Assembly: GCA_000004695.1 (NCBI GenBank)
Contig: CM000152.2
Location: forward strand, 5,568,001-5,632,000
Reading direction: 5' to 3'
DNA length: 64,000 nucleotides
Origin: Dictyostelium discoideum
Taxonomy: Eukaryota
Each line of letters opens with the position of its first letter. Positions within the stretch are counted from its first letter, which is position 1. The position numbers and the translations under genes were made by a program. This document shows positions 27,367-64,000 of this stretch, in pieces. The notes under the pieces are model-generated. The model did not search any database. It was not told the origin of the DNA and was given only the letters and a program-made list of their open reading frames with translations.

Positions 27367-29368
<2,002 letters not shown>

Positions 29369-55103: not shown

Positions 55104-56547
55104 AAAATAGAAATAAAAAAAAAAATAAAAATATTTTTACTAATTTTTTTTAAATTAATTATATCTTTTTTTTTTTTTATTTTTAGGATTTTTATGTGAT
55201 GCATATGATTTATTTGTAATTAATTTAGTATTAGTTATATTACAAAAACTTTATAAAGAATCAAGTGGTGATTCATCGATGGTATCCACTGGTGCATTAT
55301 GGGGAGCAGTTGGTGGTCAAATTGTTTTTGGATTTTTAGCAGATAGAATTGGTAGAAAGATAGGGTTTATTATAACGTTATCATTTATTATTGTTGGGGC
55401 ATTTGCAAGTGCAGTTTCATTTGACAAGGCAGCATTGAATATTTTTGGTATGTTGACATTGTGGAGAACCATTTTGGGTTTCGGTATTGGTGGTGAGTAT
55501 CCATTGTCGGCCACAATCTCCAGTGAGAGTAGTAGCAGTGATAGAAAGCGTGGTTCTCAAGTGGCCTCAGTGTTTAGTATGCAAGGTTTGGGTATAATTC
55601 TATCGCCAGTGGTTGTTATAGTGCTCTTGAAAATCTGTGGTTCAAATCATATTGATTTAGTGTGGAGATTGGCATTGGGGTTCGGCGGCATACCAGGTTT
55701 GGTGATGATTTACTTTAGAATTAAAATGAAAGAGACTAAAAGCTTTTCAAATAAAGCAAAGATTCAAAAGAAACAAATGTTTTTATCAATTATGAAATAT
55801 TGGAAGACTTTAGCGGGTACTGCCGGTGGTTGGTTCATTTTCGATATCACATTCTATGCTAATGGTCTTTTCAATGGCACTATTGTGTCTTTGATTGGTT
55901 TCGATGATGCTAGCAATACTTATGATGAGATTTGGAATACAACTTTGGTTTCACTCTATCTTGCACTCATTGGTTTGCCAGGCTATTTCGTTGGTATCGC
56001 ATTGATTGACCGTTTGGGAAGAAAGAAGTTACAAATGTTGGGTTTCGCTCTACTAGGTATAACCTATATGGTGATGGGTATAAGTTATGATCATATCGTA
56101 AAGATTAAAGCTTTGTTCATTGTACTCTATGGTTTAACTTTCTTTTTCGGTAATGCTGGTCCAAATACTACAACTTTTGTATTGCCTTCAGAATCTTTCC
56201 CAACTAAAATTCGTGCAACTTGTCATGGTTTATCTGCTGCTGCCGGTAAAATTGGTGCTGTAATCGGTGGTGCAACAATCAAACCTTTATTTACAAACTA
56301 TGGATTAGGTAAAACTTTAATCGTTTGTGGTGCTATTGCTTTCGTTGGTTTAATTCTTACCTTTTTAATAGTTGAAGAAACAATGGGTAAACCAATCATT
56401 GAAGATGAAGATATTCAATTAGATAATATCTCTGATGATCCATCTTTACGTGAATCAACTGGTAGTTCAAGTTCTGGTGTTGAGGATAATATTGATAATA
56501 ATAATAATAATAATAATACTATTACAAATCCAATTGAAAGTAATTAA
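54573..56547 (+). CDS. Inorganic phosphate:H+ symporter of the major facilitator superfamily (PHO84-like). 2 exons, approx 54573..55044, 55187..56547. Long Asn-rich cytosolic N-terminus.
   Basis: Exon 2 begins GFLCDAYDLFVINLVLVILQKLY...GALWGAVGGQIVFGFLADRIGRK...TLWRTILGFGIGGEYPLSATISSE...RGSQVASVFSMQGLGI (PHO84 motifs GGDYPLS, TSE). About 12 predicted TM segments. Donor GTAAGA, acceptor ttttag. Confidence 0.85.
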
Positions 56548-56969: not shown

Positions 56970-57478
56970 TTATTTTAATAATTTTTCAAAAGATAATTTA
57001 TCCTCGGCAGAAACTTTTTGTGGGAAAATAATATTGAAAATAACGTAAAGATCACCAGTTTGAGATGGGAAAGAATGATGTGGCATACCTTCACCATCAA
57101 CTTTAATGGTTAAACCTGGTGAAGTTACATCGACACGATTGATTTCAACTTTGTGACCATCTAAATGATCGATTTCCTTCTTGAAACCAACCAATGCTTC
57201 TAATAATGTAATTGACATATCATAGTAAAGATTATCACCAGATCTTCTAAATTTGCTATCTGGGGATGTAACAATTTTGAAAATGATATCACCTGGAGTA
57301 ACATCTGGTGATTCTTCACCTAATTGTTCTAATTTAATAATTGATTGATCATTCATACCTCTTTCAATTTCAATTGTATATGTTTCTTCTCCAATCTCTA
57401 CTTTCTTACCATGACAGTGTGGACATTTACTTGTAACCTTTTTACCTTTACCTCCACATTCATCACAACTATTATTAA

Positions 57479-57565
<87 letters not shown>

Positions 57566-58340
57566 CATCATCGTCATCATCATTAGTATTATTATTAATT
57601 AATTGAAAATGAAGTTTATAATTAAAATACATACGCTGATTGAATTTGTTGTACAAAACCTGGACCTAATTGTTGAACCTTTAATTTGATACCAGAACCT
57701 TTACAGCCACCGCAAGTAGTGACATCTGATGCTTTTTTAGCACCAGAACCACGACATTTTGTACAGAGAACTTGTTTCTTATGTGTTACTTTTGTGGTTT
57801 TTCCAATGTATAAATCCTTTAATGTAACTTCTAATTCCAATTCAATATCAGCTCCTCTTTGTTGTTGTTGGGCTTGTTGTTGATGTCTACCACCACCTCC
57901 AAATCTAATAAATAAATAAATAAATTAATTAATTAATTAATTAATTAATTAATAATAAATATTTTTATTTTTTATTATTATTTATTTTTTTTTATTTTTA
58001 TTTTTTTTTTTACTTACACAGAGAAAATATCAAATGGATCGAAACCACCACCGCCATGGTTTTGTTTTAAACCTTCTTCACCATATTGATCATAGATTCT
58101 TCTTTTTTCTGGATCACTTAATGTTTCATAAGCTGAATTGATTTCGATATACATATCTTTTTTATCTGGATTCTTATCTGGATGATATTTCACTGATAAT
58201 TTACGATATGATCTTTTGATATCAGCTGGTGAAGAATCTCTAGTTATACCTAATATATCATAGAAATCTCTACCTGCGTATGTAAAAACTGATAAACATA
58301 CAACAATAACTAAAATTATTAATGATTTTATTTTCATCAT
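56970..58340 (-). CDS. Type I DnaJ/Hsp40 with N-terminal signal peptide (ER-lumenal, Scj1-like). 3 exons, approx 58340..58018, 57904..57635, 57468..56970. Intron 2 is an (AAT)n/poly-Asp-looking AT-rich tract.
   Basis: Signal MMKIKSLIILVIVVCLSVFTYA + J domain RDFYDILGITRDSSPADIKRSYRKLSVKYHPDKNPD...AYETLSDPEKRRIYDQYGEEG. G/F region FGGGGRHQQQ. Four CxxCxGxG zinc repeats (CTKCRGSG, CGGCKGSG, CDECGGKG, CPHCHGKK) are split by the GTATGT...aataatag intron. C-terminal substrate domains. The ORF-track ORF 56970..57656 reads through this intron. Confidence 0.85.
57478..57575. repeat. (ATT)n/(AAT)n microsatellite forming most of DnaJ intron 2.
   Basis: Perfect trinucleotide run. Similar (AAT)n runs fill RhoGEF introns at 27841-27940 and 28785-28905. 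Confidence 0.9.
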
Positions 58341-58476
58341 TTTTTTTTTTCTTTTTTTCCTAAACTTATTTAAATAAATATTTTTATTGAAAAAAATAAA
58401 AAAATTATGTATATATTCGGTTGATGAAAACAAATATATTGAAATTACTATTATTACAATTCAAAAAACAAAAAAA

Positions 58477-58521
<45 letters not shown>

Positions 58522-58538: not shown

Positions 58539-58578
<40 letters not shown>

Positions 58579-58848
58579 GCTTTTTTTTTTTAATTCCACA
58601 AACATATGCATAAATCTTAATTTTTTTTTTTTTTTTTTTTTTTTCAATTATTTTCCAATTCAACATTAGAAATATTGACTTGAATTATTATTATTTGAGT
58701 TTATTTTCAGTAATTTTTTTTTTTTTTTTTTTTTTTTCTTTCAAAAAAACAATTATCAATGGATTTTCTTATCTTAATATCTTTTTAACCAATTCCTTTT
58801 GTCAAGAATGAAATTCATTTTTTTTTTCATTTATATTATTGATGTTAT

Positions 58849-58905
<57 letters not shown>

Positions 58906-59325
58906 GATTAACTATATATAGCATTTTTAATTAGGAAATTACTATTAATAGCTTTTGTTGAACTGCTTTTTGTTTTTTTTATTATGTCACAGTTATATTA
59001 AATATTGTTATAAAAAAAAAAAAAAACAAAAAAAAAGCAAAAAATTGGTGTTAGCGATTATTGCTTGTGTTGAAAATATTGTATTCTTAAATTTAATTTT
59101 TCCCACACTTATTGGTAAATTAAAATATTATTAATATTGTTAATCATTTATATTAATTTTTAATAAATAATAAATATATATAAATATAAAAATATTATTA
59201 TTAATATTTAATTTAATTTTTTTTTAGAGAAAAAAAAAAAGTATAAATTGAAATTGAAAATATATTATTCATCATTTAAAAATAAATTATTTGTTTATTA
59301 AAAAATAATACACAAAGTAAAAAAA

Positions 59326-59680
59326 ATGACAATTTTATGTAAGTTCAATAAAATATTTAAAAAAAAAAAAAAAAAAAACCTATTATTTATTTTTCTAAAC
59401 ATTTTTTTTTTTTTTAATTTCTAATATAGCTGCAATTACTTCAATTTCAAGACCAAATAAAATTAGTAAATCAGTTATTTCATCAAATGGAGGTTCTTCA
59501 TTGTCAATGGGTTCTAATTCAGTCTCATGTTATAATGCTTGTGGAGGTGGTTCAAGTTATTCATATAGCTCAAGCTATTCAGGTTCAGGTTTAGATTATT
59601 CATATAAGGCAAACTATTCAAGTTCAACTGGTTATAATTCCTCTGTTGTAATTGCAAGTTCAACATGTCATTGCAGTTAA
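59326..59680 (+). CDS. HssA/2C/7E-family small secreted Ser/Gly-rich protein, copy 1. Exons 59326..59338 and 59430..59680.
   Basis: ATGACAATTTTAT|GTAAGT ... ctaatatag|CTGCAATT gives [87 protein letters not shown]. The composition and MTIL... N-terminus fit the Dictyostelium hssA/2C/7E family. Assigned from memory and not verified. Confidence 0.7.
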
Positions 59681-60479
59681 TTAATTTAATTAACTCTAAT
59701 TAATTAATTTATTAATTAATTCAACCTTGGAAATTATTTCTTTGGTCATTTAAAAAATGTATTTTAATAAAAAAAAAAAAAAAATTGAAAAAAAATTATA
59801 AATTTTAAATTGTTTTAAAATTATATTTACCTTAATAATATTATACAAATAAAATTAATTATTATTATAGTGACAATAATAAAAAAAAAATTTTAATAGT
59901 AATTAAATGATTTTTTTAAGTTATAAAATATTTTTTATTTTTAATATTGAATTTCATTTTTTTATTTTTTTTTTTGGATTTGAATATATATTATATTGAT
60001 GTTATTGAAAGTTTTTTTTATTTTTTATTTTTATTTTTTGAATCTACTATATAAATAGCTTTTTTAATTAGGAAATTACTATAAATAGCCTTTGATGGTG
60101 AACTGCTACTGTTTTTTTATTATGTCACAGTTAAAATTAATTGTTTGAAAAAAAAAAAAAACAAAAAATTGGTGGGAGCTATTATTGCTTGTGTTGAAAA
60201 TATTGTATTCTTAAATTTAAATTTTCCCACACATATTGGTAAATTAAAATAGTATTAAAATTGTTAATCATTTATATTTAATAAACAATAAATATATTTT
60301 TTAGTATTGTTTAAAATTATTTATTTATTTATTTATTCATTTATTTTTTTAAATTTTTTTATTTTTTTATTTTTTTTTGGTAAAAAAAAAATTATAAATA
60401 CAAATTAAAAATATATCATTCATCATTTTTAAAATAAAATATTTGTTTAATAAAAAATTAAACATAAAAATATAAAAAA

Positions 60480-60840
60480 ATGACAATTTTATGTAAGTTC
60501 AATAAAAAATTAAAATAAAAAAAAAAAACTAATTATTTATTTTCCTAAAATTTTTTTTTTTTTAATTTTTAAACATTTTTTTAATATAGCTGCAATTACT
60601 TCAATTTCAAGACCAAATAAAAGTAGTAAATCAGTTGTTTCATCAAATGGAGGTTCTTCATTATCAATGGGTTCTAATTCAGTATCATGTTTTAATGCTT
60701 GTGGAGGTGGCTCAAGTTATTCATATAGCTCAAGTTACTCAGGTTCAGGTTTAGATTATTCATATAAGGCAAACTACTCAAGTTCAAATGGTTATAATTC
60801 CTCTGTTGTAATTGCAAGTTCAACATGCCATTGCAGTTAA
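60480..60840 (+). CDS. HssA/2C/7E-family protein, copy 2. Exons 60480..60492 and 60590..60840.
   Basis: Same structure as copy 1. Product [87 protein letters not shown]. Confidence 0.7.
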
Positions 60841-61261
60841 TTAGTTTAATTAACTATAATTAATTAATTTATTAATTGTTTCAACCTTGGAAATTATATC
60901 TTTGGTCATTAAAAAAATGTATATATGTAAAAAAAAAAATTATAATAAAAATTATCAATTTGAAATCGTTTAAAAAAACAATATAATTTACTTAATAATA
61001 TTAAACAAATTAAATTTATAATTTGATTACCATCTTCTAATGGCATGGTAAGATTGGAAAAGATATATTTTTTTTTTCTTTTTTTTTTCTGTTTGTGTTT
61101 TAAAATTTTTTTTTGAATTTGATTTGATATTAATATTGATGTTTAGACAGTTATTTTTTATATTTGGAACCTACTATTATAGGATTCTTAATAAGGAAAT
61201 TACTATTAATAGCTTTTGTGGGGAAGTGCTTCTGTTTTTTTATGTCACAGTTAAAATTATA

Positions 61262-61327
<66 letters not shown>

Positions 61328-61613
61328 TTGGTGTGAGCGATTATTGCTTGTGTTGAAAATATTGTATTCTTAAATTTAATTTTTCCCACACTTATTGGTA
61401 AATTAAAATATTATTAATACCGTTAACCATTTATATTTAATAAGCATATAAATAATATTATTTAAATAATATTATTTAAATAATATTATTTGTTATTTAT
61501 TTATTTTTTTTTTTTGTTAAAAAAAAAAAGTATAAATTGAAATTGAAAAAATATTATTAATTATTAGAAAATAAATATTTTGTTTATTATAAAAAAATAT
61601 TTTAAATTAAAAA

Positions 61614-61961
61614 ATGACAATTTTATGTAAGTTCAATAAAATATTTAAAAAATAATAAACAAAAAACTAATTTTTTTTTTTGTCTAAACTTTTTTTAATT
61701 TCCAATCTAGCTGCAATTACTTCAATTTCAAGACCAAATAAAATTAGTAAATCAGTTATTTCATCAAATGGAGGTGCATCATTATCAATGGGTTCTAATT
61801 CAGTATCATGTTTTAATGCTTGTGGAGGTGGCTCAAGTTATTCATATAGCTCAAGTTACTCAGGTTCAGGTTTAGATTATTCATATAAGGCAAACTACTC
61901 AAGTTCAACTGGCTATAATTCCTCTGTTGTAATTGCAAGTTCAACATGTCATTGCAGTTAA
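61614..61961 (+). CDS. HssA/2C/7E-family protein, copy 3. Exons 61614..61626 and 61711..61961.
   Basis: Same structure. ...[26 protein letters not shown]...[18 protein letters not shown]. Matches ORF-track 61680..61961 over exon 2. Confidence 0.7.
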
Positions 61962-62696
61962 TTAATTTAATTAACTCTAATTAATTAATTTATTAATTAA
62001 TTCAACCTTGGAAATTATTTCTTTGGTCATTAAAAAATGTATATATGTAAAAAAATAAATAAATAAAAATTACAAAATAAATCATTGTGTGTTGGTTTTT
62101 TTTTAAGTGTTAATCTTTTCTCTATCTCTCAACAATTGGATTACCATATTCGAATGGCTTTGTAGGATCAGAAAGTATATTTATATATTTTTATTTTGAA
62201 TTTCATTTTATTTTAATTTATATTTCTAACTTTTTTTTTTGAATTTGAAATTATGTAATTAATAGTTTTTTTTTTTATTTTATTTTTTTATTTTAAACCT
62301 ACTATAAATGCATTTTATATATGGAAATTACTATAAATAGCTTTTGTGGTGAAGTGATACTGTTTTTTATTATGTCACAGTTAAAATTATATTGTTGGAA
62401 AAAAAAAAAACAAAAAAAAAAAAAAGCAAAAAATTGGTGGGAGCGATTATTGCTTGTGTTGAAAATATTGTATTCTTAAATTTAATTTTTCCCACGTATT
62501 GGTAAATTAAAATATTATTAAAACAGTTAATCATTTTTATTTATTATATCAATATCAATTAATTTAATTTTATTTAATTATATAATTTTTTTTTTTTGGT
62601 GAAAAAAAAAAGTATAAATTGAAATTAAAAATAAATTATTCATCATTGAAAAAATATATTATTTGTTAAATAAAAAATTAAATTTTAAATAAAAAA

Positions 62697-63035
62697 ATGA
62701 CAATTTTATGTAAGTTAAATAAAATAATTAAAAAAATAAAAAAAAAACTAATTATTTATTTTTTTAAACATTTTTTTAAAATAGCTACAATCACTTCAAT
62801 TTCAAGACCAAATAAAATTAGTAAATCATTTGTTTCATCAAATGGAGGCTCTTCAATATCAATGGGTTCTAATTCAGTAGCATGTTATAATGCTTGTGGA
62901 GGTGGCTCAAGTTATTCATATAGCTCAAGTTACTCAGGTTCAGGTTTAGATTATTCATATAAGGCAAACTACTCAAGTTCAACTGGTAATAATTCCTATG
63001 TTGTAATTGCAAGTTCAACATGCAATTGTAATTAA
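62697..63035 (+). CDS. HssA/2C/7E-family protein, copy 4 (most diverged). Exons 62697..62709 and 62785..63035.
   Basis: Same structure. Exon 2 encodes [41 protein letters not shown]...[18 protein letters not shown]. The ORF-track 62697..63035 reads through the 75-nt intron in frame. Confidence 0.7.
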
Positions 63036-63244
63036 TTAATTTAAAAATAATTAATTGATTCAACCTTGGAAATTATTTCTCTGGTCATTAAAAAAATGTA
63101 TATATGTAAAAAAATAAATAAAAATTTCAAAATTAAGTAATGATTGTAGGTTTTTATTTTAAGTGTTAATCTTTTCTATTTTTCTTGATTTTTTAATACT
63201 CCGATAACCATCTTCAAATGGCCTGAAAAGATCAGAAAGTATAT

Positions 63245-63283
<39 letters not shown>

Positions 63284-63689
63284 TATAAATAGCTTTTTTA
63301 ATTAGGAAATTACTATTAATAGCTTTTGGGGTCAACTGCCACTGTTTTTTTATTATATCTCAGTTAAAATTAAAATGTTGAAAAAAAAAAAAAAAAAAAT
63401 TGGTGGGAGCGATTATTGCTTGTGTTGAAAATATTGTATTCTTAAATTTATATTTTCCCACACTTATTGGTATATTAAAATATAATTAAAACAGTTGATC
63501 ATTTGTATTTAATAATTAATAAACATAATATTAACATCACCATCAATTTATTTAATTTTATTTTATTTAATTATTTAAATTTTTTTTTTGGTAAAAAAAA
63601 AAAGTATAAATTGAAATTAAAAATATATTATTCATCATTAAAAAAATATATTATTTGTTAATTAAAAAAAAAAATTTTAAAATAAAAAA

Positions 63690-64000
63690 ATGACAATTTT
63701 ATGTAAGTCCAATAAAATAATAAAAAAAAAAAAAACTAATTATTTATTTTTCTTAACATTTTTTTTTTTAATATCTAATATAGCTGCAATTACTTCAATT
63801 TCAAGACCAAATAAAAGTAGTAAATCAGTTATTTCATCAAATGGAGGTTCTTCATTATCAATGGGTTCTAATTCAGTATCATGTTTTAATGCTTGTGGAG
63901 GTGGCTCAAGTTATTCATATAGCTCAAGTTACTCAGGTTCAGGTTTAGATTATTCATATAAGGCAAACTACTCAAGTTCAACTGGTTATAATTCCTCTGT
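63690..64000 (+). CDS. HssA/2C/7E-family protein, copy 5, 3'-truncated by the window end. Exons 63690..63702 and 63784..>64000.
   Basis: Same ATGACAATTTTAT|GTAAGT first exon and ctaatatag acceptor. ...[72 protein letters not shown].... Confidence 0.65.

Follow-up and report, generated by a model that had tools for sequence, protein, structure and literature searches.

We found that each of the five hssl genes arrayed in tandem on chromosome 3 of Dictyostelium discoideum AX4 (hssl54–58) is preceded by a two-part upstream module, consisting of a strongly constrained segment of ~110 bp (ModB) and a weakly conserved, distal one (ModA), and that purifying selection on ModB equals that on coding sequence in strength. 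Judged from these sequence data, the module is probably the upstream cis-regulatory region (enhancer/UAS) of each hssl54–58 promoter, copied when the gene was duplicated and since maintained by selection.

Within the window, that is, the whole 64,000-nucleotide stretch that was analysed, the array is adjoined by one MFS and one DnaJ gene and comprises the following features.

59326–59680, + strand: hssl54, 87 aa (exon 1 59326–59338; intron 91 nt; exon 2 59430–59680, including the stop codon)
60480–60840, + strand: hssl55, 87 aa (exon 1 60480–60492; intron 97 nt; exon 2 60590–60840)
61614–61961, + strand: hssl56, 87 aa (exon 1 61614–61626; intron 84 nt; exon 2 61711–61961)
62697–63035, + strand: hssl57, 87 aa (exon 1 62697–62709; intron 75 nt; exon 2 62785–63035)
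63690–64000, + strand: hssl58, cut by the window end (exon 1 63690–63702; intron 81 nt; exon 2 from 63784)
59722–59750, + strand: conserved 3′UTR element CAACCTTGGAAATTATTTCTTTGGTCATT, an imperfect inverted repeat, with further copies at 60882, 62003, and 63061

The sequence-only reading had described five tandem genes for ~87-aa proteins, each with a 13-nt first exon and an intron of 75–90 nt. The five copies are indeed present, with ATGs at 59326, 60480, 61614, 62697, and 63690, and all have the 13-nt exon; the range given for the introns is, however, exceeded in copies 1 and 2. All five fit the hssA/2C/7E layout (13-nt exon 1, one short intron, ~250-nt exon 2, and a product of <120 aa) and agree with the sigN150/155/151 rows (chromosome 3, 87 aa, introns of 90/83/74). 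The copy 4 protein is identical to UniProt HssA/B-like protein 57, whose 90% identity cluster includes AX4 hssl54, 55, 56, and 58, and array proteins match PF05710 over residues 1–86 at 54.8 and 55.9 bits, as compared with a curated cutoff of 21.4. The proteins had also been called secreted; the hssl sequences show no obvious hydrophobic signal peptide, and secretion has been suggested solely by Vicente 2008, for the sigN relatives (PMC2257962).

The upstream module and the core promoter are laid out as follows.

58911–58996, + strand: ModA copy 1, with a pair of TACTATWAATAGCTTTT-type repeats at a distance of 30 nt, of which CTAWWWWTAG at 58942–58951 is the second, and with a GTGG..GAACTGC box and tatgtcacagtta
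60047–60133, + strand: ModA copy 2, with CTATAAATAG at 60079–60088
61172–61253, + strand: ModA copy 3, with CTATTAATAG at 61203–61212, followed by a 54-nt poly(A) tract
62298–62383, + strand: ModA copy 4, with CTATAAATAG at 62331–62340
63281–63365, + strand: ModA copy 5, with CTATAAATAG at 63283–63292 and CTATTAATAG at 63313–63322
59035–59146, + strand: ModB copy 1, with GGTG..AG, ATTATTGCTTGTGTTGAAAATATTGTATTCTTAAA, TTTCCCACAC.TATTGGTAAATTAAAATA, and GTTAATCA
60160–60269, + strand: ModB copy 2
61319–61428, + strand: ModB copy 3
62424–62533, + strand: ModB copy 4
63393–63500, + strand: ModB copy 5
59241–59260, + strand: core promoter (G/T)TATAAAT(T/A)(G/C)AAATT(G/A)AAAA with the TATA box, a conserved T-run/A-run before each copy; the other copies begin at 60392, 61530, 62612, and 63604

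Every module string quoted in the sequence-only reading was recovered, attattgcttgtgttgaaaa being found five times in the array and tatgtcacagtta four times, with tatatctcagtta in its place in the fifth copy. The position assigned to the module (~−330 to −90) holds when counted from the TATA box (~−330 to −85), but not from the ATG, from which it extends from ~−415 to −170. At its 5′ edge, ModB has a G-rich box under less constraint, GGTGGGAG; its further elements are a near-invariant core of 30 nt, ATTGCTTGTGTT(G/A)AAA.ATATTGTATT(C/T)T, a GTTAATC tail, and, 39 (or 32–33) nt 3′ of the core, the CA-rich box TTTCCCACAC.TATTGGTA. The distance from the CA box/ModB end to the TATA box is variable (98–168 nt), and that from the TATA box to the ATG is nearly fixed (84–88 nt in the array copies).

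A second conserved block that had been noticed in the spacers is also present, at the three sites listed below; it is missing between copies 1 and 2.

61003–61070, − strand: block 2 relic 1, reading IFSNLTMPLEDGNQ, a degenerate Response_reg fragment
62114–62184, − strand: block 2 relic 2, ILSDPTKPFEYGN..RDREKINT, disrupted by a stop and a frameshift
63178–63249, − strand: block 2 relic 3, ILSDLFRPFEDGYRSIKKSRKIEKIN

By its sequence, block 2 derives from the neighbouring histidine kinase gene: it is a decayed piece of the receiver domain, on the reverse strand, that was copied along as the array expanded. In five other genomes, the block-2 profile has its match within the adjacent kinase gene, and the intact receiver-domain copy of that gene reads ILSDLTMPFEDGYSMVRKLRDREKINT (PF00072 at 60.5 bits); the relics contain stops and frameshifts and are 76–86% identical to the original. 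A regulatory element or RNA at block 2 was rejected in favour of this degenerate fragment.

The sequence-only reading had further proposed that the module is better conserved than the spacers, as opposed to a whole 1.1-kb unit equally conserved throughout. Pairwise identity among the five AX4 copies was indeed uneven over the unit, averaging 95% in ModB, 95.7% in exon 2, and 82% in ModA, as against 48% with gaps counted (67% for substitutions only) in the spacer between ModB and the TATA box and 31–51% with gaps counted in the intergenic spacers; block-2 relics of the same repeat units are only 77–79% identical. The ModB copies were detected by nhmmer with E-values of 1e-24 to 1e-31, well outside chance similarity, with no further matches in the window. 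Constraint was then assessed from substitutions only in five positional-orthologue pairs between AX4 and a divergent isolate, the orthology by position being clear in two pairs and merely plausible in the other three. ModB differed at 17 of 435 positions (3.9%), as low as exon 2 (4.8%), whereas the pooled comparison set of introns, spacers, intergenic DNA, and block-2 relic differed at 231 of 1584 (14.6%; Fisher p=6e-11). The two clearest pairs alone gave 2.8% vs 13.3% (p=2e-5), and within AX4 the ModB divergence was ~5% vs a synonymous pS of 0.10. For ModA as a whole, constraint was not significant (11.8% vs 14.6%, p=0.28), and ModA has been lost from one isolate copy with the ORF still intact.

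Moreover, a ModB profile gave 16 matches in ~270 kb (AX4, 5; the isolate, 5+1; D. cf. discoideum, 3; D. citrinum, 2), each upstream of an hssA-type gene, in one orientation, and none elsewhere. When a dispersed D. discoideum paralogue is compared with D. citrinum (exon 2, 81% identical), blocks of 12–45 nt are at least 90% identical and are separated by indels of 2–9 nt. These indels are not multiples of three, which argues that ModB is non-coding, and no conserved ORF was found in ModB among the compared copies. ModB thus has the attributes of a footprinted cis-regulatory module, being non-coding, slower-evolving than its neutral neighbours, fixed in orientation, and flexibly spaced from the core promoter. 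The constraint, gene linkage, orientation, and spacing pattern, all directly observed, together with the footprint-like mosaic between the two species, support the earlier suggestion of a shared enhancer; the constraint presumably acts via protein binding and transcription.

In the Kin 2018 supplement, two hssA/2C/7E genes listed beside the MFS gene DDB_G0282311, namely DDB_G0282315 and DDB_G0282319, rise from ~0–4 at 0–12 h to 438 and 195, respectively, at 16 h and are prestalk-enriched. From the gene order, we infer that these data belong to the hssl54–58 array, whose expression would accordingly be prestalk-enriched and begin at 16 h, with ModB best read as its enhancer. ModB would be the functional core of the module, a cluster of protein-binding sites made up of the 30-nt core, the CA box, the G box, and the GTTAATC tail; in prestalk cells of the slug stage, these sites may be occupied by sequence-specific factors that switch on all five genes together at ~16 h. 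The identity of the factors can be proposed from motif likeness. As a guess, GBF-type G/CA-box binders are candidates for the GGTGGG and CCCACAC boxes: GGTGGGA and (reverse) TGTGGGA, ~65 nt apart, each agree with the GBF heptamer at six of seven positions, with the CA box nearly invariant and the 5′ G box differing among copies (GGTGTT, GGTGTG, GGTGGT, GGTGAG). An equally conjectural candidate for the CTA(A/T)4TAG sites of ModA is a MADS/MEF2-type factor. Each of the five AX4 copies has a perfect site at an equivalent position, and CTAWWWWTAG occurs 13 times in the window vs 2.6 expected, a fivefold enrichment, 7 of the 13 being inside modules; the looser YTAWWWWTAR is retained in only about 12 of the 16 copies and broken in ~4.

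Two alternatives would explain the conservation of the module without an enhancer. ModB might be functionless, either as non-repetitive DNA that mutates slowly compared with slippage-prone spacers or as DNA homogenised with the coding region by gene conversion. The spacers are in fact 5–12% GC and rich in homopolymers and indels, conversion is frequent in tandem arrays, and this array is young, D. citrinum, D. dimigraforme, D. firmibasis, and D. purpureum having none at the syntenic site. AT-rich low-complexity spacers do slip fast and inflate the contrast if gaps are counted; this is answered by the substitution-only figures and by the non-repetitive relic, since the ModB rate of 3.9% is about four times lower than those of the introns (14.1%) and of the block-2 relic (16.0%), which belongs to the same units and has a similar GC content. 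Conversion is limited because positional orthologues between the strains keep copy-specific markers, and the divergent spacer between ModB and the conserved TATA box/gene means that one conversion tract cannot explain both. As ModB has also been retained in D. citrinum and the dispersed paralogue, whose coding sequences are 81% identical, a functionless ModB is unlikely. We consider it a little less probable still that the module is an upstream transcription unit, in which ModA TATAAATAG followed by oligo(dT) is a distal promoter, ModB a non-coding first exon, and the AT-rich spacer an intron (TTGG/GTAAAT to ...AAAG/TATAAAT). The ModA CTATAAATAG is also a perfect TATA box with a T-run ~25 nt later, the ModB core ends in GGTAAAT, similar to a 5′ splice site, and the spacer is intron-like in composition and variable in length. 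However, the paralogue reads GGCAAAT and so has not kept the GT, GGTATAT is found in three copies, and hssl55 is without the proposed AG acceptor (AATTATAAAT); the proximal GTATAAAT, 84–88 nt before the ATG, is highly conserved as expected of a real TATA box, ModA is poorly constrained and has gone from one copy, and the published gene models have two exons (PMC2257962).

The sequence-only reading had offered, as the alternative to an enhancer, a small non-coding RNA gene embedded in each repeat unit, driven on the + strand by TCCCACA as a ‘DUSE’ or ending on the − strand at a T-run. Its appeal lies in ModB being as conserved as coding sequence, in a GTGGGA...TCCCAC inverted repeat that could form a 6–7-bp stem in some copies, and in the T-run, which is present on the reverse strand. 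Nevertheless, the sequence largely refutes it, on the DUSE consensus, downstream conservation, class I motifs, Rfam, folding, and covariation alike, and we regard it as highly improbable. TCCCACAC misses the published consensus [AT]CCCA[AT]AA at two of eight positions, and neither this consensus nor [AT]CCCA[CT]AA occurs in 58900–64000 on either strand; the DNA ~60 nt 3′ of TCCCAC is the least conserved segment, a spacer of 5% GC, and no DUSE-like C-run lies upstream of the putative minus-strand start. The array region lacks the 11-nt motif (CCTTACAG/CTTACAGC), the class I 8-mers being absent even at one mismatch, as well as any TGTG box or AAATGTG, and Rfam gave no match over the module. Fold z-scores ranged from −1.6 to +0.7 (both strands, three lineages), RNAalifold predicted no pairs on the + strand and four weak ones (−0.8 kcal/mol) on the − strand, and the GTGGGA/TCCCAC hairpin showed no compensatory changes, those in the 5′ arm just breaking pairs. 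The T-run taken for a ‘terminator’ simply complements a poly(A) tract, 9 to 54 nt long depending on the copy, and Pol III would stop at internal runs of T4–5. There is likewise a slim chance that ModB is transcribed as a short unstructured regulatory RNA or as a promoter-upstream transcript acting on the array, or else is a platform for a prestalk/slug-stage master factor with a 30-nt site near-invariant across species. Such a transcript, if real, would tie in with hssA itself, which reportedly can act at the transcript level, a frame-shifted hssA still suppressing the statA defect.

Compared with known systems, the module shares with the DUSE-dependent small RNA genes (class I/II, snRNAs) nothing but a short inverted repeat and a motif containing CCCA; it has neither the DUSE consensus nor a conserved RNA ~60 nt downstream of such an element, and it lacks the 11-nt CCTTACAGCAA-type motif, a terminal stem with covariation, and covariance-model matches. 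The likeness to Mef2A/SrfA sites is that hssA-related genes respond to mef2A loss, being derepressed in mef2A− (PMC3640940), and sigN genes to srfA loss. The array site, however, lies in the weakly constrained ModA and doubles as a TATA-like sequence in an 85–90% AT context, and hssl54–58 are absent from the published Mef2A list (PMC3640940). The sigN group 1/2 genes (PMC2257962) differ in that they form inverted gene pairs rather than a head-to-tail array and are induced at 10–12 h vs ~16 h. Their upstream sequence is distinct, the ModB profile being without a match at the other hssA-family loci compared; moreover, the array G/CA boxes reach only 6/7 of the GBF heptamer, and the most constrained part of the array module is the 30-nt AT-rich core. 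The two nevertheless share the hssA/2C/7E family and two-exon structure, clustered paralogues with intergenic DNA alignable only in discrete blocks, G/CA-rich boxes in these blocks a few hundred bp upstream, and post-aggregative, prestalk expression. In the sigN group 2 promoters, the common conserved blocks carry boxes of the GBF type, (T/G)G(T/G)G(T/G)G(T/G); promoter function has been shown by lacZ fusion, with prestalk expression (PMC2257962).

The AT-rich Dictyostelium DNA at 58900–64000 consists of five head-to-tail units of ~1.0–1.15 kb, each carrying one small hssA/2C/7E-like gene (hssl54–58), the fifth copy being truncated by the end of the window. The five-copy array with an upstream module described in the sequence-only reading is indeed present, but the intron range given there was too short, the longest intron being 97 nt. 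The genes, each with a 13-nt first exon, an intron of 75–97 nt, and an 87-aa product, start as follows.

59326, + strand, ATG of hssl54
60480, + strand, ATG of hssl55
61614, + strand, ATG of hssl56
62697, + strand, ATG of hssl57
63690, + strand, ATG of hssl58

The array proteins match PF05710. The copy 4 product and UniProt HssA/B-like protein 57 (D. discoideum AX4) are the same sequence, the 90% cluster for the remaining copies includes hssl54, 55, 56, and 58, and the proteins have consecutive GenBank entries (EAL66279–83), the adjoining DnaJ gene being EAL66278. From the cluster membership and the consecutive entries beside the DnaJ gene, it follows that the window lies on AX4 chromosome 3 and that the array numbers exactly five genes. 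In Vicente et al. 2008, sigN150, 155, and 151 appear as chromosome 3 genes for 87-aa products, with intron lengths of 90, 83, and 74 nt. Synonymous and non-synonymous divergence among the AX4 copies are 0.10 and 0.035, respectively. hssl57 (62697–63035) is the divergent copy, with a non-synonymous divergence from the others (0.048–0.055) about equal to or higher than its synonymous divergence from hssl55 (0.049) and a C-terminus changed from CHCS to CNCN, suggesting relaxed or positive selection. Very long homopolymer tracts (A57, T47, T51, and A54 at 58463–58519, 58545–58591, 58854–58904, and 61267–61320) are found in the DnaJ–array interval and within unit 3, and a 128-nt (TAT)n tract (57470–57597) lies inside a DnaJ intron as annotated at the syntenic locus.

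Conservation along the unit was found to be very uneven in a MAFFT alignment of the five units. The segment identities range from 31 to 95.7% and the 1.1-kb unit is not uniformly conserved; as had been claimed from the sequence, the module is better conserved than the spacers, its constrained block of ~110 bp (ModB) standing at 95% against 31–51%. The claimed module position, ~−330 to −90, holds when counted from the TATA box (~−330 to −85), whereas from the ATG it is ~−415 to −170. The distal, weakly conserved part of the module is hereafter designated ModA.

Conservation by segment: mean pairwise identity among the five AX4 units, and divergence (substitutions only) over five orthologous pairs of AX4 and a divergent D. 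discoideum isolate
Exon 2: identity 95.7%; divergence 4.8%
ModB (~89 nt, ttggtgggagcg...aaattaaaata): identity 95%; divergence 3.9% (17/435)
TATA region: identity 89%
TATA plus 5'UTR: divergence 10%
ModA (ggaaattactat...cagtta): identity 82%; divergence 11.8% (pair with ModA loss left out)
ModB–TATA box spacer: identity 48% with gaps, 67% by substitutions only
Intergenic spacers: identity 31–51% with gaps
Intergenic DNA: divergence 13–14%
Spacer 1: divergence 16.5%
Introns: divergence 14.1%
3'UTR: divergence 5.2%
Block-2 relic (second spacer block): divergence 16.0%

For the comparison between isolates, related loci were fetched via their encoded proteins.

L002, the divergent 'D. discoideum' isolate, syntenic five-copy array
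L011, a 'D. cf. discoideum' isolate, three copies
L003, a dispersed paralogue from the first (L002) isolate
L001 and L006, two D. citrinum genes of the same subclade

Copy-specific markers are retained in the AX4 and isolate copies, with clear positional orthology in pairs 2 and 5 and plausible orthology in the other three. ModB diverged far less than the pooled neutral classes (14.6%; p=6e-11), also in the two clearest pairs alone (2.8% versus 13.3%; p=2e-5). With a divergence that is low against the neutral classes and near that of exon 2, ModB therefore evolves in the manner of coding sequence under constraint. Taken whole, ModA showed no significant constraint relative to neutral DNA. One isolate copy (gene ATG at L002:12401) has lost ModA, with unrelated sequence in its place at L002:11950–12100; its ModB and TATA box remain, and its 87-aa ORF is unbroken. 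This natural deletion could reveal the contribution of ModA.

In ~270 kb of Dictyostelium DNA, the ModB profile found 16 copies, all upstream of an hssA-type gene and in the same orientation, with no match away from such genes; other hssA-family loci of D. firmibasis lack ModB. The D. citrinum L006 copy was missed by the first module profile and recovered with a ModB-only profile with the bias filter off. The TATA–ATG spacing is 84–88 nt in the array copies and 78–94 nt in the paralogues, the CCCAC box lies 39 nt from the 30-nt core (32–33 nt in five copies) and 98–168 nt from the TATA box, and the poly(A) tract separating ModA from ModB measures 9–54 nt. The motifs singled out in the module are ATTGCTTGTGTT, TTGTATTCT, CCCACAC, and GGTGGG. 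Between the dispersed paralogue and D. citrinum, where exon 2 is 81% identical, the module is kept as 12–45-nt blocks at ≥90% identity (ATTGCTTGTGTTAAAAAATTGTATT; ATTTCCCACAC.TATTGG; TACCGTTAATCA; ACTACTATWAATAACTT..GTGG.GAACTGCTTATT; ATATTGTTTGTGTTAA), with intervening indels whose lengths are not divisible by three, a pattern characteristic of footprinted regulatory regions.

Two further short elements were observed. One, 50–70 nt upstream of ModA (58838–58850, 59994–60007, and 61131–61143; L003:9531–9545 and its L001 equivalent), has the sequence ATATTGATGTTAT in the array; the paralogue and D. citrinum share its counterpart TAGATATTGTTGC at 18/18 positions, and the regulatory region may reach ~−450. 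The other, ~40 nt past the stop codon, reads (C)AACC(T/A)(T/A)GGAAATTATTTC(T/C)TT(G/C)GTCATT.

59722–59750, 60882–60910, 62003–62031, and 63061–63089, 3'UTR element in the array
L003:10408–10436, 3'UTR element of the dispersed paralogue
L001:10405–10432, 3'UTR element of D. citrinum

It forms an imperfect inverted repeat about GGAAAT/ATTTCC, kept in both the dispersed paralogue and D. citrinum, in a 3'UTR diverging by 5.2% versus 14.6% for neutral DNA (p=3e-7), and may be an mRNA stability or 3'-end signal.

[quoted passage not shown] The DUSE as published, [AT]CCCA[AT]AA, precedes the RNA or a TGTG box by ~60 nt (PMC3188802, PMC7919456). TCCCACAC of the module departs from this consensus at two positions, conservation is lowest in the segment 60 nt downstream, and a consensus DUSE, a TGTG box, and class I 8-mers are all absent from 58900–64000, even with one mismatch allowed. 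Rfam gave no match over the module; eight folds on both strands from three lineages gave z-scores of −1.6 to +0.7; and RNAalifold predicted four weak pairs on the − strand and none on the + strand. Compensatory changes are lacking in the GTGGGA/TCCCAC stem, variation in its 5' arm only disrupting pairing, and the T-run on the reverse strand is the variable-length poly(A) tract read in complement. A tRNA scan and Rfam searches at gathering and E-value thresholds returned nothing relevant, the CRISPR-DR, SNORD24, and mir-651 matches being weak and in coding DNA or far under threshold. The only CTTACAGC (a class I RNA 8-mer) in the window, at 29300–29307 (−), lacks a DUSE or TGTG box at the appropriate spacing, gives no Rfam match, falls in sequence that reads as coding, and is probably a chance occurrence.

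A coding module is ruled out by stops, absent ATGs, and frame-breaking indels (2, 7, 8, and 9 nt); a short ORF in copy 4 from tatgtcacag and an open frame across ModB reading LVGAIIACVENIV... were both dismissed, as a stop follows after 5 codons in copy 1 and the other copies have no ATG. ModA could be read as serving an upstream non-coding exon, in which case its TATAAATAG would act as a distal TATA box and splicing would join the donor GGTAAAT to the acceptor AAG|TATAAAT; this is unlikely because the donor is GGCAAAT in the paralogue, hssl55 lacks the acceptor, and the proximal TATA box shows conservation of its own, at a constant distance. Nor do a purely mutational or a gene-conversion origin of the ModB conservation fit the substitution-only contrast with introns and the non-repetitive relic, or the retention of ModB in a dispersed paralogue and another species. 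A bacterial promoter/terminator scan, irrelevant to a eukaryote, gave nothing above shuffles.

The second conserved spacer block noted from the sequence does recur at three places, but its nature is that of a relic.

61003–61070, − strand, block-2 relic
62114–62184, − strand, block-2 relic
63178–63249, − strand, block-2 relic
L002:14662–14722, original of the relics

Its profile matches within the 3' part of a large gene that lies beside either the array or the DnaJ gene in the isolate, D. cf. discoideum, D. citrinum, D. dimigraforme, D. firmibasis, and D. purpureum, where the intact source (reverse strand, ...DIILSDLTMPFEDGYSMVRKLRDREKINT...) encodes a Response_reg receiver domain (PF00072, 60.5 bits). 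The array copies, 76–86% identical to the original and 77–79% among themselves, are degenerate, translating with stops and frameshifts. Given its homology to the intact domain and these lesions, block 2 is a pseudogene relic, a decayed receiver-domain fragment of the neighbouring hybrid histidine kinase gene. Since the copies are kinase-gene fragments, the original duplication unit extended into the 3' end of that gene. The syntenic DnaJ–kinase interval contains no hssA genes in D. citrinum, D. dimigraforme, D. firmibasis, and D. purpureum, three in D. cf. discoideum, and five in each of two D. discoideum genomes (AX4 and the isolate); therefore, the array is a young, lineage-specific expansion, seeded by an L003-type gene with its enhancer. 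An Inhibitor_I29 gene occupies the array site in D. citrinum and D. dimigraforme. The annotations of D. citrinum P0003 (127 aa; L001:10001–10356) and P0008 (160 aa; L006:638–~970) appear wrong, the family-typical splice site giving 89 and ~80 aa; the L006 product has no cysteines, and its gene may be a decaying paralogue that still retains ModB.

Collectively, the data support the enhancer half of the earlier interpretation but not the small-RNA/DUSE half: the constraint on ModB, its linkage to hssA-type genes in the same orientation, and its footprint-like blocks indicate that the module is likely an upstream enhancer of the hssl54–58 promoters, with ModB as its putative functional core. Kin et al. 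2018 (supplementary file 5) list DDB_G0282315 and DDB_G0282319, annotated hssA/2C/7E, after the MFS gene DDB_G0282311; with an MFS gene at 55279–56547 and a DnaJ gene adjoining the array, gene order makes these two likely array genes. In the same data, their values of ~0–4 at 0–12 h climb to 438 and 195 at 16 h. Both genes show prestalk enrichment, with 615 versus 114 for the first and 247 versus 8 for the second, and are almost silent in mature cup, spore, and stalk cells; assignment to the cup-cell hssA clade of Kin 2018 was rejected (cup TPM 0.2–0.4, peak at 16 h). Literature searches on GBF/CA-rich elements and on hssl or DDB_G identifiers gave nothing useful.

The 110-bp element is precisely delimited, with a near-invariant 30-nt core and a CCCACAC box, and is directly testable as the switch by which a young array of variable copy number would be expressed, with prestalk enrichment, at the slug stage. 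The receiver-domain relic provides an internal neutral yardstick, and the array is dated to the D. discoideum lineage. Understanding of small-RNA genes or of Dictyostelium promoters is unchanged. CTA(A/T)4TAG occurs in ModA of 5/5 AX4 copies and 13 times in the window against 2.6 expected (7/13 within modules), and is absent from about one-quarter of copies; hssA-related genes are derepressed in mef2A- (PMC3640940). Within ModB, the G box varies among copies, the CA box hardly at all. GBF- and MEF2-type factors are candidate binders of the module, identities that we only infer. sigN promoters of the same family, which direct expression in prestalk cells, contain conserved blocks with GBF-type (T/G)G(T/G)G(T/G)G(T/G) boxes (PMC2257962), and GGTGGG and (reverse) TGTGGG of ModB agree with this box at 6/7 positions. 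The module is a further example of the footprinted promoter module, a kind already known in the hssA/sigN family.
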